A stretch of DNA of 59,383 nucleotides, from the NCBI GenBank assembly GCA_900553835.1, contig USFF01000004.1:1-59383 (forward strand), given 5' to 3'. The first letter of the stretch is position 1. Each line of letters opens with the position of its first letter. The stretch comes from an uncultured Mycoplasmatota bacterium (GTDB lineage: Bacteria > Bacillota_I > Bacilli_A > RF39 > UBA660). Below are positions 46,177-49,809 of the stretch, piece by piece. Under the pieces are notes generated by a model, which saw only the letters and a program-made list of their open reading frames with translations, ran no database searches and was not told the origin of the DNA. Position numbers and translations under genes: made by a program.

Positions 46177-47505
46177 TTACTCTTTATTCTCAAGTGTTTT
46201 TATTTCATCTACTTCTACTTTTTTATTTTTCTTTTTTCTTTTGTTTTTTTTGACACTTGAAATTAGAAGTATTAGTACTAATACTAATGTTTCTGATGCT
46301 AACACTATTATTATTAGTAAGTAATTATCTATTTTTTTATTTAAGTCATTTAATATGTTTTCATTATATTTAGCAAGAGCATTGTTTATAGCATCATAGT
46401 AGTATAATTCTTCTTTTCCTGTTTCAATGTTTACTCCATATAGAATAAAGAATTCGTTATTATCTTTATATTTATATGCATTTACTTTGTTTCCATTTAT
46501 TTCTATTTCTTCTTTAGTAAAACCTTTTATTTCATTGTCACTATTTATTGGAAATAAAACTATTCCACTAGTTTTTATTTCAGTATATTTTGTGTATTTA
46601 CCATCTTTATATATGTATAGTGCAGCTTCTCCGTTTTCATTTTTTAGTCCTACTAATGTGAAATTTGTTATTGTGCTTGTGAAAGATGGTACATCTATTC
46701 CCTCGATGTTTGTAGTACTAGCTTCATATGTTTCTGGTATAGTTAATGCGCTGACTCTTTTTATTATGGTGTATTTTTGGTTATTTATTAATACTTCTAT
46801 TGGATTTTTATCTTCTACATTAACCACTAGAGTATAGGTTTTAACTCCGCCATTTTGCGCGGTTACTTTTATTTCAAATTTATTTTCACCTTCAGTTACT
46901 TCTTTTTCTCCAAGTCCACTTACTGATGATTTAGAGTCTTCCACACTTCCTGTTATGTTTATTTTTTCAGTTGTAGAAGGTACACTTGCTGTATAACTTA
47001 ATGTTTCTTTGTTAAATGGTTCGTTTAGTGAAAAGCCTTCTACTCCAAGTGAACTTAAGTTATTATTTTTACTGTAACTTGCTTCCAATTCTGCTTGTGT
47101 TATAGCAGTTATTTTTACACTGTTAATTGTTAGTGCTAGTTTACTTTCATCAAAAGCAAGAGCATCATAACTTTTTACGGAAACTGTACTAGTACCTCTT
47201 GATATAACTTTAAATTTGTATGAATAGCTTTGTGATTTAGTACTTGAATTTGGCGCATACCCTACTACATTTGTTGTACCACTTATGAGTTTTAGTTTGC
47301 TTGAATCATAGGATAGTGTGTATTCCCAAGAACCAAGTGATGCGTTTGATGAAAGTCTTATTGTTATATTTATTTCACTTCCTACAACCGCAGAAGTTTT
47401 ACTAGATGAAACTGATATAGTCCCACTAGCGGCATTTAATTCTTTTGGAGTTACTATAATTAATGCTAATAATATTATTCCAAAAATCTTTTTTATTCTT
47501 TTCAT
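46177..47505 (-). CDS. Membrane-anchored cohesin-like protein with a cadherin-like beta-sandwich domain
   Basis: Signal peptide, then a module of about 110 aa, ISVSSSKTSAVVGSEINITIRLSSNASLGSWEYTLSYDSSKLKLISG (cohesin-like pattern). Next comes LSSLGVEGFSLNEPFNKETLSYTASVP...KVTAQNGGVKTYTLVVNV (cadherin-like), then a C-terminal TM segment and a polybasic tail. Confidence 0.6.
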   Translation of the reverse strand: MKRIKKIFGIILLALIIVTPKELNAASGTISVSSSKTSAVVGSEINITIRLSSNASLGSWEYTLSYDSSKLKLISGTTNVVGYAPNSSTKSQSYSYKFKVISRGTSTVSVKSYDALAFDESKLALTINSVKITAITQAELEASYSKNNNLSSLGVEGFSLNEPFNKETLSYTASVPSTTEKINITGSVEDSKSSVSGLGEKEVTEGENKFEIKVTAQNGGVKTYTLVVNVEDKNPIEVLINNQKYTIIKRVSALTIPETYEASTTNIEGIDVPSFTSTITNFTLVGLKNENGEAALYIYKDGKYTKYTEIKTSGIVLFPINSDNEIKGFTKEEIEINGNKVNAYKYKDNNEFFILYGVNIETGKEELYYYDAINNALAKYNENILNDLNKKIDNYLLIIIVLASETLVLVLILLISSVKKNKRKKKNKKVEVDEIKTLENKE

Positions 47506-47514
47506 TTTTCCCTC

Positions 47515-49809
47515 CTAAAATGTTATTATTTTAAGTATGTATTTTTGAATTCTAAGTAAGTCTAATATCGTTACTTCATTATCATCACTTGTATCCCCGG
47601 CTACTAAGTATTCATCTGTTAATAGTGATGCTTTAAGTAAATGCTTTTGTACTTTTAATAAGTCTAGAATTGTTATTTCACCATCCCCACTTACATCTCC
47701 TTTTATTGCCAAAGAAAATGTTTCTGTTTCTCCTGATGGTGTTGTTATTTTAAGTTCTTGTCCAGTTTTAAGTATTCCGGTTAAGCTTGCTGCAGAAGAA
47801 TTTGCTTCATTTAGAGTTATAGTTGTTCCTGGACTTAATTTATTAATGCTAGATGTTAGTGTAGTGCCTAGAGTACCTGCACTTATTCCATAGAGTATAT
47901 TCCCATTTCTTTTTACAGCTAAATTGTTTATGATTTCTTCAATTGTTGTAGTATCTTCCACTTTGAAAAGTGTCATTTTGTAAGTTCTAGTACTACCATC
48001 TTCTGCAGTTACTTTTAACTCGATTAGTTTTTCGTTTTCTTCAAATGTTATTTTACCTGCACCTTCTACTTTACTAGTACTATCTGTTAAGTTAACTACA
48101 ACATTATATTCTTTATCATTTTTATCTACGTATGCAGTAAATTCTAATAAATCTTTATCAAAGTTTGATACTTTTTTTCCATTAATTGTTATTCCTTCAA
48201 TAGTGTTTATAGAACTTGCTATGTTAGGAAGACTTACTACCTTTGGCATTTCTTTAAAGACAGGTATTTCAAATGTGTATGCTTCATTAAGTAAACCCAT
48301 GTCTTTGTATGATGCATATGAGTCTGCTGCATCACTACATGGCGCTAAAACATTGGTTTGATAGGCATGTGTATAAAGTGAGTTTTTACTTTCTGGGTTT
48401 ACATTATATCTTTGAAGGTACATGCTAAATTGTCCGACTGAAATAAATCTTTCTGCTATGTACTGTGCTCCGCCTTTTATTGCTTTTTCCCTTGTATCCC
48501 AAGGTCTACCATATGTATCAGAATTTCCACATTTTGATCCACAAGCATAAAGTAAGCCGTTTTTTACTGGACTATTATATATGTCATTGGGTTTGAATGC
48601 CCCTAAATAAGCACTTATATTGTAGTAGTTATATAAACCATTAATATTAAAGTTTCCATATAAGTCAGGATTATTTCCTGATACAGCAGTATATTTTTCA
48701 TTAGCTGCACCTTCTCCTTTGCTTCTTGTTGTTAAGTGTACTGGGCTAACATTATGAGTAAATCCTGCTTCTATAAAATATCTTTTATATTCATCAATAT
48801 TTAAGTATGAACCATTAAGAACTGAAGAAATTGTATTTAAGTATTTTTGTGCAGTAGGACTATTTATATCTAAAACTTCTTTACTACCTTCTCCATAGTC
48901 ATATCTTAAGCTTTCAAACATAAACACAAATTTTTCTGTTAAAAAGTTTCTTGGATCTAAATAGAAAGCTACTATACTAGATTTGACTGGATACCAGTTT
49001 ACCCCATCAATGTTATCTACTAGACTTGTTAAATAATATTTATAATTCTTATAGGCTGGTGATATTTCTCCGCTTGTTTTCCCTAAATATAAAAGTGCTG
49101 TTTTACCATCAAAACCATCTAATACTTGGTTCCAATACAAATTTGTTATTAATGGTTTAAATTCCCATGATGGATGATCTTTATGTAGCTTTACTAAGTA
49201 TGGAATGTAGTCATCTGGAAAACCTAAGTTTTTTAGATATGTTTCATAGTCCGTATCGCTTGCTGTAATATCTTCTTTTTTTACTACAAATTTAGAACAC
49301 ACATAACCTTCATCATTTTTATAATAATTTATTTTGTAGTAACCTTCATCACATCCACTTCCATTTATTAACCCACTTGTTATTTTTATGTTTGTACCTG
49401 GAAGTAATACATCTTTTATAGTTCCTCCAGCACTAGCTGTGCTTTTTACATATATGTTAACTCCATTTATCCTAGCTTCATATACTTCTTCATTATATGA
49501 AGGTTCTTCTATACCTGGTGTGTCACCAATTGAAACATATTTTCCACATATGTAACTTTCTTTATCATTATAAATTATTTTATACCATCCAACCGAACAA
49601 TTACTATCTCCTACATTATATAATTCATCTGATACTAAATTTATTGTTGTGTTTTTATTATGTATTATACCAGTTTCACTATAGTCTACTCCTGGGCCGG
49701 TTCTTACTTTAACTGTTGTTCCTACTGTATAGCCATTTAAGGCATTAAGTCTTGCTATAGTTAATATATTAAAAACAATTATTAGTAAAATTATAAGTTT
49801 ATTTTTCAT
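47515..49809 (-). CDS. Secreted peptidoglycan hydrolase: 2 x SH3b + GH73-like N-acetylglucosaminidase + cadherin-like domain + C-terminal dockerin
   Basis: Two SH3b-like repeats (GYTVGTTVKVRTGPG..., ARINGVNIYVKSTAS...). Glucosaminidase-like core (AFYLDPRNFL..., RSKGEGA, GGAQYIAERFISVGQFSMYLQRYNV). Duplicated Ca-binding segments GDVSGDGEITILDLLKVQKHLL and GDTSDDNEVTILDLLRIQKYIL. Confidence 0.7.
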   Translation of the reverse strand: MKNKLIILLIIVFNILTIARLNALNGYTVGTTVKVRTGPGVDYSETGIIHNKNTTINLVSDELYNVGDSNCSVGWYKIIYNDKESYICGKYVSIGDTPGIEEPSYNEEVYEARINGVNIYVKSTASAGGTIKDVLLPGTNIKITSGLINGSGCDEGYYKINYYKNDEGYVCSKFVVKKEDITASDTDYETYLKNLGFPDDYIPYLVKLHKDHPSWEFKPLITNLYWNQVLDGFDGKTALLYLGKTSGEISPAYKNYKYYLTSLVDNIDGVNWYPVKSSIVAFYLDPRNFLTEKFVFMFESLRYDYGEGSKEVLDINSPTAQKYLNTISSVLNGSYLNIDEYKRYFIEAGFTHNVSPVHLTTRSKGEGAANEKYTAVSGNNPDLYGNFNINGLYNYYNISAYLGAFKPNDIYNSPVKNGLLYACGSKCGNSDTYGRPWDTREKAIKGGAQYIAERFISVGQFSMYLQRYNVNPESKNSLYTHAYQTNVLAPCSDAADSYASYKDMGLLNEAYTFEIPVFKEMPKVVSLPNIASSINTIEGITINGKKVSNFDKDLLEFTAYVDKNDKEYNVVVNLTDSTSKVEGAGKITFEENEKLIELKVTAEDGSTRTYKMTLFKVEDTTTIEEIINNLAVKRNGNILYGISAGTLGTTLTSSINKLSPGTTITLNEANSSAASLTGILKTGQELKITTPSGETETFSLAIKGDVSGDGEITILDLLKVQKHLLKASLLTDEYLVAGDTSDDNEVTILDLLRIQKYILKIITF

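Follow-up and report, generated by a model that had tools for sequence, protein, structure and literature searches.

A conserved hydrolase–anchor gene pair in uncultured gut Bacilli and a proposed cohesin–dockerin tether for a GH73 enzyme

How might a secreted peptidoglycan hydrolase be kept at the surface of the cell that makes it? The question is raised by two neighbouring genes in a 59,383-nucleotide stretch of DNA (the window) from an uncultured Mycoplasmatota bacterium (contig USFF01000004.1), one encoding a hydrolase that ends in a dockerin and the other a membrane protein with a compact cohesin module. The answer favoured here, which we regard as probable, is a one-to-one cohesin–dockerin tether encoded by a translationally coupled two-gene module, in which a GH73 enzyme would be docked on a single-pass membrane anchor.

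The gene pair and its neighbourhood

Both genes lie on the minus strand. The hydrolase (764 aa) occupies 47515..49809 and was characterized from its reading frame, Pfam and comparison of its family profile with the PDB; the anchor (442 aa; AlphaFold model pLDDT 86.2) occupies 46177..47505. These reading frames and the 9-nt spacing had been given in the initial annotation and were confirmed in the sequence. The junction (47506..47517, minus strand), from the TAG stop of the hydrolase to the ATG of the anchor, reads TTT TAG GAGGGAAAA ATG and leaves the frame unchanged. The stop codon overlaps the AGGAGG Shine–Dalgarno sequence of the anchor, and from this arrangement the two genes are predicted to be translationally coupled.

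Homologues of the anchor number more than 1,400, and the protein is found in at least 496 species-level genomes, all from uncultured gut “Bacilli”. Synteny of the pair is complete: 77 loci from other species could be tested, and in each a dockerin-bearing hydrolase is the immediate upstream neighbour of the anchor, in the same orientation. No more than 20 nt separate the two genes in 77 of 79 pairs. Adjacency and tight coupling hold down to 39% anchor identity, and in an independent collection the pair is still together at 33% hydrolase identity. The window and each of 80 loci contain exactly one ORF with a dockerin and one with a cohesin, a count that refers to these stretches and not to whole genomes. 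No further dockerin or cohesin was detected in the 59-kb window, and no natural cohesin–dockerin fusion was found.

The next gene, 38 nt downstream of the anchor (44342..46138, minus strand), encodes an LCP (LytR-CpsA-Psr) glycopolymer ligase whose C-terminal domain is PASTA (Pfam LytR_cpsA_psr, 145.7 bits; PASTA, 31.8 bits; NCBIfam TagU/LytR-like). The initial annotation had placed it in one operon with the pair. Proximity is borne out, with an LCP gene in the flanks of 58 of the 80 loci, but these fall into four different arrangements and the LCP gene of the window has a promoter-like site of its own at 46165–46193. LCP is a frequent, not an obligatory, neighbour whose position varies. At one locus (L081), teichoic-acid genes lie beside the pair.

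Domain architecture of the two proteins

The hydrolase is composed of a signal peptide, two SH3b domains, a divergent GH73 core, a Cadherin-like domain, a module of about 85 residues and the dockerin. Its SH3b repeats (residues ~32–93 and ~105–180; 49270..49716, minus strand) were recovered by Pfam SH3_3 in two stretches at 46.3 bits, and the family profile matches the SH3b structures 2kq8, 2krs and 2kt8. The N-acetylglucosaminidase-type core spans residues ~190–520 (48250..49242, minus strand). Pfam Glucosaminidase (PF01832) has no match in the window protein or in any of 42 family members, yet sequence searches reveal GH73 homology, as originally proposed. With the window protein as query, phmmer finds solved GH73 enzymes (Acp, 5wqw; 1.5e-7), while the family profile matches Atl (6fxo; 1.3e-16), SagB (6fxp/6u0o; ~1e-14), Acp (5wqw; 2.8e-14) and AtlE (4pi7; 7.6e-13). 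The candidate catalytic residues are E366 and Y483 (HAYQTN motif), which in the family are either invariant or conserved to 95% or more; E366 is invariant and aligns with the catalytic Glu of solved GH73 enzymes. These matches support the prediction of a divergent GH73 N-acetylglucosaminidase. Membership of the SagB family itself was rejected (NCBIfam SagB, 27 bits, cut-off 425).

A Cadherin-like β-sandwich follows at residues ~530–615 (47965..48222, minus strand), sub-threshold in the window hydrolase (15 bits) and matched by PF12733 in 32 of 42 orthologues. Its counterpart in the anchor (residues 150–232; 46810..47058, minus strand) scores 39.4 bits and is matched in 48 of 48 anchor orthologues. 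The two copies are 35% identical (E = 3e-13), in agreement with the earlier view that both proteins carry the same domain. Directly N-terminal to the dockerin lies the ~85-residue module (residues 616–700; 47710..47964, minus strand), which has no Pfam match in the window protein or 42 orthologues. It is retained in the short, mid and long hydrolase classes, with an alignment occupancy of 0.94–0.99, and might be likened to an X-module.

The C-terminal repeats described at the outset as a dockerin are recognized as such by Pfam Dockerin_1 (residues 703–759; 39.8 bits, cut-off 22.9). This type-I-like dockerin (residues 703–764; 47518..47703, minus strand) consists of two 22-residue Ca-loop/helix repeats, identical at 14 of 22 positions, and its PDB matches are the type I dockerins 2ccl, 1ohz and 4dh2. 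Across 76 species, conservation of the Asp residues that serve as Ca ligands is 95% or more in both repeats, D739 alone being lower (85–95%). The repeats co-vary at equivalent positions (I714–I748, K719–R753, T713–T747 and L715–L749), and their symmetry suggests a dual binding mode. SH3_3 and Dockerin_1 are both present in all 42 orthologues. The dockerin has thus been kept even though the short hydrolase class lacks the first SH3b and the Cadherin-like module, which favours the tether.

The anchor begins with a signal peptide and a cohesin (residues ~26–136; 47098..47430, minus strand). Its cohesin pattern is recognizable only at the level of the family and the fold, since the window protein has no Pfam Cohesin match, a result that counts against the tether; the cohesin reading of the initial annotation, made from this one protein, is borne out at those two levels. 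PF00963 is matched by 20 of 48 orthologues (best 1.7e-9), and cohesins are the top PDB matches of the family profile (3l8q, 0.003). A Foldseek search with the AlphaFold model placed 2w1n first (1.3e-7), followed by 2jh2, 2vo8, 4dh2_C, 6kgc_A and 2xdh. Further features weigh against the assignment: TM-scores to cohesins are moderate (0.46–0.63 on target), generic β-sandwiches such as TRAP subunits appear in the same list, and the module has ~110 residues where canonical cohesins have ~140.

After the Cadherin-like domain comes a third, membrane-proximal all-β domain (residues 233–381; 46363..46809, minus strand), predicted to be a 13-strand β-hairpin meander (isolated model pLDDT 93.6, pTM 0.85). 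No relative of this domain was found in Pfam, by sequence in the PDB or by fold in the PDB (best E = 0.22). The protein ends in a TM helix, from residue ~382, and a Lys/Arg-rich cytoplasmic tail (46180..46362, minus strand; helix 382–441 in the model), both anticipated in the initial annotation and seen in sequence and model alike. In orthologues the tails reach ~170 residues and are K/E-rich with poly-Lys at the end.

A proposed tether and its alternatives

Co-variation between the two proteins is strongest, among all folded-domain pairs of the full matrix, for dockerin and cohesin. With an MIp threshold of > 0.2, 0.70–0.73% of their column pairs are coupled, against 0.10–0.14% for the dockerin and the other folded domains of the anchor. 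Dockerin positions 9–11 couple mainly to cohesin I101, K111, L116, Y96 and A115. The recognition positions of the dockerin thus appear to co-vary preferentially with the cohesin, by a margin that is modest at an Neff of about 64 and with phylogeny controlled in part. GH73 and cohesin columns also show raised co-variation (0.43%), which counts against the tether.

Every module named in the initial annotation is present, and the homology and synteny checks that it suggested support its reading. In the proposed tether, Sec signal peptides would export both proteins. The anchor would be a single-pass type I membrane protein, retained by the TM helix near its C-terminus, the polybasic tail lying in the cytoplasm, and its Cadherin-like and third β domains would form a stalk that lifts the cohesin a few nanometres off the membrane. 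Into this N-terminal cohesin the Ca-loaded, C-terminal dockerin of the hydrolase would plug non-covalently and in a calcium-dependent manner. The SH3b domains would bind the wall and the GH73 domain would cut peptidoglycan glycan strands, with the producer’s own wall as the presumed substrate. A complex of this 1:1 stoichiometry would prevent the enzyme from diffusing off and would keep the glucosaminidase in the membrane-proximal wall zone, where peptidoglycan and LCP-attached glycopolymers are assembled.

It is also conceivable, if unlikely, that the anchor is a regulator. Docking would then place the GH73 enzyme or switch it on, as SpdC acts on SagB and FtsEX on its hydrolases, and through the third domain and the long charged tail the hydrolase would be coupled to cues from the membrane or the cytoplasm, or to the LCP/teichoic-acid machinery. 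The strict conservation, confident fold and membrane-adjoining position of the third domain fit such a role, as do the variable length of the cytoplasmic tails and the recurrent linkage of the pair to LCP and teichoic-acid genes. SagB, moreover, is among the closest solved GH73 relatives, and its products are controlled by a membrane complex (bioRxiv 10.1101/2020.05.21.109470). Against this, no domain for signalling, catalysis or ATPase activity can be recognized in the anchor, its third domain co-varies with the hydrolase domains no more than background, and a stalk is the simpler explanation of the extra domains.

A weapon or scavenger is much harder to reconcile with the locus, and we consider it very improbable. 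Here the pair would be a minimal “lyticome”, whose surface GH73 cuts the peptidoglycan of neighbours or wall debris in the gut. Rumen cellulosome lysozymes and cell-wall hydrolases that bear dockerins have been read in this way (PMC6487960; PMC6403190), and the hosts do live in the gut and have small, AT-rich genomes. However, the membrane-bound anchor has an ectodomain of ~360 residues, so that the enzyme would lie inside or beneath the wall of its producer and not beyond it. The context is one of wall biosynthesis (LCP and teichoic-acid genes) without immunity or transport genes, and nearly all of the lineage carries the pair, in single copy, as a housekeeping function predicts. Least credible of all is an absence of binding between the two proteins, the dockerin being a Ca-binding stabilizer or wall binder or having its cohesin elsewhere, and the anchor β-sandwich a generic Ig-like or cohesin-like fold for another ligand, with adjacency due to a shared envelope role: the silence of Pfam on the window anchor, the generic sandwiches in the Foldseek list and the predicted nature of the docking would allow it, but it is opposed by the complete and tightly coupled adjacency, the orthologues that qualify as Pfam Cohesin by themselves, the constant retention of the dockerin while other modules are lost, its preferential co-variation with the cohesin, and the single cohesin and dockerin of the window and the 80 loci.

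Relation to known systems

The tether can be set beside several known systems. Type I pairs of cellulosomes, such as the C. thermocellum Xyn10B dockerin with CipA cohesin 2 (1ohz/2ccl) and OlpC–Doc435 (4dh2), share the C-terminal, duplicated Ca-loop/helix dockerin on a secreted glycoside hydrolase, the symmetric recognition positions and the β-sandwich partner; these entries are the best PDB sequence matches for the dockerin and among the best fold matches for the cohesin. Unlike cellulosomes, this system has a lone cohesin and a lone dockerin and lacks a scaffoldin, a CBM or any enzyme for plant cell walls, its cargo is a predicted peptidoglycan hydrolase and its cohesin is compact. The non-cellulosomal cohesins of C. 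perfringens (GH84C cohesin-FN3, 2w1n; 2jh2; 2vo8) likewise belong to secreted glycosidases of a non-cellulolytic Firmicute, and the structure that the anchor model matches best is that of GH84C cohesin-FN3. Cohesin and dockerin modules of C. perfringens connect soluble toxins and glycosidases to each other, whereas here the enzyme would be joined to a dedicated membrane anchor from the next gene, and the substrate would be peptidoglycan instead of host glycans. Cohesin proteins are usually anchored through SLH modules or sortase (PMC12484212), in contrast to the C-terminal TM helix seen here.

In Staphylococcus aureus, the GH73 enzyme SagB is held at the membrane by its partner SpdC (bioRxiv 10.1101/2020.05.21.109470). 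The pair described here would work in a similar way, with a membrane protein placing GH73 cutting near glycan-strand synthesis. SagB, however, is anchored by an N-terminal TM segment of its own and binds within the membrane to an eight-helix, CAAX-protease-like protein, whereas the present enzyme is predicted to be fully secreted and joined outside the cell, through cohesin and dockerin, to a single-pass protein.

The initial annotation knew of no characterized case of a dedicated autolysin–anchor pair sharing an operon with an LCP ligase. The idea nevertheless has some precedents. Ruminococcal dockerin-bearing lysozymes and cell-wall hydrolases (PMC6403190; PMC6487960), discussed as a possible “lyticome” (PMC6403190), also combine a peptidoglycan-active module with a dockerin; they assemble on multi-cohesin scaffoldins in fibre degraders, and other cells are their proposed target, in contrast to the dedicated 1:1 membrane anchor proposed here in a wall-biosynthesis context. 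The closest published observation is a sentence by Ze et al. (2015; PMC4611034), who cite Wegmann et al. (2014), on Ruminococcus bicirculans, a non-cellulolytic gut Firmicute with only one dockerin and one cohesin “associated with a GH73 enzyme”. That sentence is a genomic remark on a member of the Clostridia, not the Bacilli, and itself holds no analysis of conservation or mechanism. The retention of the pair in hundreds of related species suggests a so far uncharacterized way to hold a wall-cutting enzyme at the cell surface.

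The gene pair and its dockerin-bearing hydrolase

The initial annotation read two adjacent genes as a cohesin-dockerin pair that tethers a GH73 autolysin to a membrane anchor, and this interpretation, with binding as its predicted step, is supported in that it agrees with every test run. Both open reading frames are present as annotated, 47515..49809(-) encoding a hydrolase of 764 aa and 46177..47505(-) an anchor of 442 aa, in an AT-rich window (G+C about 23-30%) whose minus strand carries the majority of genes. The two ORFs lie in a common frame across a gap of 9 nt (TTT TAG GAGGGAAAA ATG), and the TAG stop of the hydrolase overlaps the AGGAGG Shine-Dalgarno sequence of the anchor gene. 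Judged from sequence, this layout is a textbook case for translational coupling. A homologue search with the read-through sequence gave 37 matches, all of them single-module fragments and none a natural dockerin-cohesin fusion. A prophage endolysin reading of the hydrolase was rejected in view of its Sec signal peptide, a chromosomal context fixed across species and the absence of nearby phage genes.

Dockerins consist of two tandem segments of about 22 residues, in each of which an EF-hand-like Ca loop, with Asp/Asn/Ser at positions 1, 3, 5, 9 and 12, precedes a helix. The duplicated 22-residue segment at the C-terminus of the hydrolase, annotated as a dockerin from the outset, has this form: its Ca loops are DVSGDGEITILD and DTSDDNEVTILD, its repeats are identical at 14/22 positions, and the Pfam model Dockerin_1 (PF00404) spans residues 703-759 at 39.8 bits (cut-off 22.9) and matches 42/42 hydrolase orthologues. 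Across 76 species, the Ca-ligand residues D705, D709, D716, D743 and D750 are conserved to at least 95%, and D739 to 85-95%. The strongest couplings within the dockerin join equivalent positions of the repeats (I714-I748, K719-R753, T713-T747 and L715-L749). The two repeats change together over evolution, the pattern to be expected were each of them able to bind the cohesin partner, and their symmetry is the predicted basis of a dual binding mode.

GH73 N-acetylglucosaminidases cleave GlcNAc-beta-1,4-MurNAc bonds in peptidoglycan. The glucosaminidase core proposed for the hydrolase holds up by homology to solved GH73 enzymes and by its catalytic residues, but not as a match to the Pfam Glucosaminidase model. 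In a phmmer search of the PDB, the core finds the Clostridium perfringens N-acetylglucosaminidase Acp (5wqw, 1.5e-7) as well as SagB, Atl and AtlE; a profile of the 42-member hydrolase family strengthens these matches to 1.3e-16 for Atl (6fxo), about 1e-14 for SagB (6fxp/6u0o), 2.8e-14 for Acp (5wqw) and 7.6e-13 for AtlE (4pi7). E366 is invariant and aligns with the catalytic Glu (LETGNG) of the solved enzymes, as is Y483, whose HAYQTN aligns to HQYATD, a YATD-type Tyr motif. Since neither the window protein nor any of 42 family members (0/42 at E ≤ 0.01) matches PF01832 despite this homology, the core is best classed by its sequence as a divergent subfamily of GH73.

The remaining hydrolase modules include SH3_3, found by Pfam at 46.3 bits in two stretches, and a Cadherin-like module, which is sub-threshold in the window protein (15 bits, Pfam) and is matched by 32/42 family members. 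The latter is 35% identical to the Cadherin-like module of the anchor (E = 3e-13), which confirms the annotated presence of the same domain in both proteins. Directly N-terminal of the dockerin, every hydrolase class has a module of about 85 residues (616-700; 47710..47964(-)) without a family assignment. In a short class (31/76) the first SH3b and the Cadherin-like module are gone; the 616-700 module and the dockerin are never lost. By analogy, the position of the 616-700 module is reminiscent of X-modules in type II/III X-dockerin dyads.

The cohesin and other domains of the anchor

The window anchor has no match to Pfam Cohesin (PF00963), even at E ≤ 1, and a phmmer search of the PDB with it found nothing; the cohesin call therefore rests on orthologues, family profile and fold. 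PF00963 is matched independently by 20/48 anchor orthologues (43-79% identity), at best with 1.7e-9. Against the PDB, the family profile finds cohesins first (3l8q, 0.003; 2y3n, 0.009; then 4u3s, 1tyj and 5g5d), in alignments that cover the N-terminal 50-60 residues or so. The AlphaFold model has a pLDDT of 86.2 overall, which exceeds 90 across residues 26-135, where nine main strands are seen. Its top Foldseek match is 2w1n, the cohesin-FN3 of C. perfringens GH84C (1.3e-7), and single-domain matches are mostly type I/II cohesins (2jh2, 2vo8, 4dh2_C, 6kgc_A, 1qzn, 2xdh and 5nrm_A), with TM scores of 0.46-0.63 on the target and non-cellulosomal cohesins among them. At about 110 residues, the module is compact and does not reach the length of canonical cohesins, and some generic beta-sandwiches also appear among the Foldseek matches; it is for these reasons that homology and modelling lead to its being rated a divergent but genuine cohesin. 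The annotated cohesin is thus upheld by the orthologue HMM matches, the family profile and a nine-stranded jelly-roll fold, but not by a PF00963 match of the window protein itself. A single cohesin is present in 79/79 anchors. Candidate two-cohesin anchors were rejected, their extra HMM matches being sub-threshold (2-4 bits) and their added length consisting of longer cytoplasmic tails.

After the cohesin, the anchor continues with a short helix, the Cadherin-like domain (residues 150-229, 39.4 bits, the only Pfam match in the window anchor), a third, all-beta domain (233-381; 46363..46809(-)), and a long helix with a TM segment from 382, followed by a Lys/Arg-rich tail. Modelled alone, the third domain is a 13-strand beta-hairpin meander with a pLDDT of 93.6 and a pTM of 0.85. 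It is membrane-proximal and strictly conserved, and has no Pfam match, no PDB sequence match and no PDB fold match (best Foldseek E = 0.22); these searches and the model make it a candidate for a new fold or domain family. The anchor tail is K/E-rich, about 100-170 residues long and ends in poly-Lys (KKKKKK) at loci L033, L035, L042, L052, L054, L058, L067, L079 and L080; that of the window anchor is a short version (KKNKRKKKNKK...).

Conservation and genomic neighbourhood

Homologues in the protein collection number more than 1,400 for the anchor and more than 700 for the hydrolase, and those named are 'Bacilli bacterium' MAG proteins only. With each GTDB species represented by a single genome, anchor relatives turned up in at least 496 genomes. 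Every one of these is an uncultured gut MAG that bears the label Bacilli, Tenericutes, Mollicutes or the like, and they include Clostridium sp. CAG:628 and Candidatus Caccenecus avistercoris (Bacilli incertae sedis). Locus L001, from a Nepalese human-gut MAG, is 97% identical to the window. The pair is conserved and syntenic in related genomes, a point that the annotation had proposed to check: in 77/80 loci the anchor has a gene for a GH73 core and a dockerin immediately upstream on its own strand, and the remaining three end at a contig edge, the dockerin still being visible in one. The stop-to-start gap is at most 20 nt in 77/79 pairs, usually with the Shine-Dalgarno sequence at the stop codon. 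At 33% hydrolase identity, the pair recurs with a gap of 8 nt in an independent metagenome contig (L081, 1..5863; also L082), where it adjoins TagF-, TarI/J- and TagO-like teichoic-acid genes (TagF-like Glyphos_transf, IspD/TarI-like, ADH/TarJ-like, G3P dehydrogenase and Glycos_transf_4). There, a 650-aa protein with no Pfam match follows the anchor.

A census with HMMs built from 79 dockerins and 78 cohesins of the natural pairs counted, for dockerin and cohesin alike, no more and no fewer than a single ORF, both across the 59-kb window and at every locus. This agrees with the annotated absence of scaffoldins and cellulases, a scaffoldin being a multi-cohesin protein, and no plant-polysaccharide CAZymes occur among the neighbour genes examined.

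The pair had also been placed in one operon with an LCP ligase. The LCP+PASTA gene (44342..46138) begins 38 nt past the anchor gene with no terminator-like site between them, and its assignment is firm (LytR_cpsA_psr 145.7 bits, cut-off 24.6; TIGR00350 131.8, cut-off 62.3). Ahead of it, a promoter-like site scored as strong (11/12) overlaps the anchor gene's end; this is weak evidence, as such sites are no commoner than in shuffles of the AT-rich window DNA. Within the flanks examined, an LCP gene is present in 58/80 loci and absent from 22. It is directly downstream of the pair on the same strand in 33, upstream and divergent in 16, upstream on the same strand in eight, and downstream on the opposite strand in one. 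Given this frequency and these four arrangements, LCP is a frequent functional neighbour outside the obligate unit; the linkage stands, but a fixed operon partnership does not.

Upstream of the pair lies an envelope-modification set (49924..54165(-)) comprising an MBOAT protein (52789..54165), a DHHW protein (51691..52779), a 157-aa lipoprotein (51206..51679) and an SGNH/GDSL esterase with a Listeria-Bacteroides repeat (49924..50907), which looks like a glycopolymer O-acylation system. Its membership in the pair module was rejected: the set is common to locus L002 only (SGNH also in L001), and a terminator-like hairpin (49909-49925) separates the SGNH gene from the hydrolase, with a promoter-like site at 49837-49865 in the same interval. 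Four genes downstream, 39897..42470(-) encodes a P-type cation ATPase whose Cation_ATPase_N and Cation_ATPase_C domains form a Ca2+-pump-like architecture. A role as conserved Ca2+ supplier for the dockerin was dismissed, the gene recurring only in L001 and weakly in L069, and because the linkage is not conserved its proximity is probably coincidental. Two tandem overlapping PlsC-type acyltransferase genes (54268..55390(-)) encode products of 189 aa (Pfam Acyltransferase, 96.9 bits) and 186 aa, the second a paralogue by similarity only; the 189-aa protein has a homologue in 10 loci, upstream of the hydrolase gene in 6/6 among the matches listed. Downstream of LCP, the overlapping ORFs 43120..44271(-) (383 aa) and 42549..43139(-) (196 aa) each encode an N-terminal hydrophobic segment, the 196-aa product also having a C-terminal TM; they match no assigned family and occur only in the closest relatives (L001; rearranged in L003). 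Four ORFs of 367, 533, 349 and 474 aa in 33287..37762(-) and 57520..58944(-) have no Pfam match at E ≤ 1e-4, and a tRNA-Cys (34564..34638) lies between two such ORFs.

Co-variation, proposed mechanism and biological meaning

Positions 9-11 of the dockerin repeats are the classical recognition positions, and here they vary by clade (TIL, NAL, DIV, DIR). Co-variation was computed as mutual information with APC correction over 79 natural pairs, about 70 of them non-redundant (Neff ~64). The dockerin columns most often involved in inter-protein couplings are positions 9-11 of both repeats, and their best cohesin partners are I101, K111, L116, Y96 and A115. As a partial control for shared phylogeny, the dockerin was compared with each of the three folded domains of the anchor: 50 column pairs exceed MIp 0.2 with the cohesin (0.73%), seven with the Cadherin-like domain (0.14%) and nine with the third domain (0.10%). 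In a domain-by-domain matrix, dockerin x cohesin (0.70%) ranks top of the folded domain pairs, with GH73 x cohesin at 0.43% and the remainder at 0.11-0.53%; after entropy equalisation the value is 1.47% vs 0.16-0.77%, a margin that is modest, with noise from poorly aligned tail columns. Cohesins engage a dockerin through one face of a sheet; these couplings favour a dockerin-cohesin contact, and are supportive rather than decisive.

The mechanism that probably applies is a 1:1 membrane tether for the GH73 enzyme. Both proteins would be exported via Sec, the anchor remaining membrane-held with its tail positive-inside and its two beta domains forming a stalk that presents the cohesin. The Ca-loaded dockerin of the enzyme would plug into this cohesin, and the resulting 1:1 complex would confine glucosaminidase activity to the membrane-proximal zone of the producer's own wall. 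Translational coupling would ensure that both partners are made in matched amounts. Of this picture, the analysis establishes module identity, conservation, adjacency and co-variation; binding, its Ca dependence, stoichiometry, localisation and the producer's wall as substrate are predictions. The main rival holds that the anchor also regulates the enzyme; it overlaps the tether and has a small but real chance of being correct. In a version that goes beyond a leash, and is rather unlikely, the pair would represent a novel kind of device that controls peptidoglycan hydrolases across the envelope. Coupling through cohesin and dockerin would then be reversible and gated by Ca, and the fold-orphan third domain and long charged tail would set where and when GH73 cuts nascent glycan strands. 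Such a device, assembled from cellulosome parts, would parallel SagB-SpdC or the FtsEX-hydrolase systems in function, and in this large lineage of uncultured gut Bacilli it would act in step with the attachment of teichoic acids by LCP. That the pair is a displayed weapon or scavenger is improbable, and that the two modules do not bind directly, against which the co-variation speaks, is the most improbable reading. 

The tether resembles cellulosomes in its parts, a classical type-I-like cohesin and dockerin, but differs in having one of each, in lacking a scaffoldin and in carrying a peptidoglycan hydrolase. C. perfringens is known to have cohesin-dockerin pairs outside cellulosomes, and its cohesins give the anchor model its best structural matches. 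R. bromii amylosomes are another example (PMC4611034). The closest precedent is found in R. bicirculans, where a single sentence, citing Wegmann et al. 2014, describes one dockerin and one cohesin 'associated with a GH73 enzyme' (PMC4611034). Cohesin proteins are typically anchored to the wall through SLH modules or sortase (PMC12484212), whereas this anchor uses a C-terminal TM helix. Dockerin-bearing lysozymes of rumen systems have given rise to the 'lyticome' idea (PMC6403190, PMC6487960). SagB-SpdC joins a GH73 enzyme to a partner that scaffolds it at the membrane (bioRxiv 10.1101/2020.05.21.109470). This is the nearest functional analogue, but its anchoring chemistry is entirely different: there, a glucosaminidase with its own TM anchor meets a polytopic CAAX-protease-like partner, whereas here the hydrolase has an N-terminal signal peptide only and the partner is single-pass. 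The NCBIfam SagB model scores the hydrolase at 27 bits, far under its cut-off of 425. A survey of literature on dockerins with peptidoglycan hydrolases, autolysins, GH73 or a membrane anchor found no description of a cohesin-dockerin gene pair combining a membrane anchor and GH73. What appears to be new is a cohesin-dockerin module, membrane-anchored and with predicted binding, that is dedicated to one cargo, a peptidoglycan hydrolase, and is conserved in a large uncultured gut lineage.

Bacteria need tight spatial control of their own wall-cutting enzymes, and known routes include wall-binding repeats, the enzyme's own TM anchor and membrane partners such as SpdC and FtsEX. Because both modules are small and easily expressed, their binding and its Ca dependence lend themselves to direct tests. 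Clade-specific residues at the recognition positions make the 79 natural pairs a ready specificity series, which may yield new orthogonal cohesin-dockerin pairs for protein engineering, and the anchor additionally brings a confidently predicted domain without structural relatives. Given its conservation across at least 496 species-level genomes from a little-known, uncultured gut lineage, the pair is likely central to wall building or splitting in its hosts. If the interpretation is true, a dedicated cohesin-dockerin link between enzyme and membrane stalk outside the cell would add a further, modular route of control, and would be the clearest case of cellulosome parts in a housekeeping envelope role.
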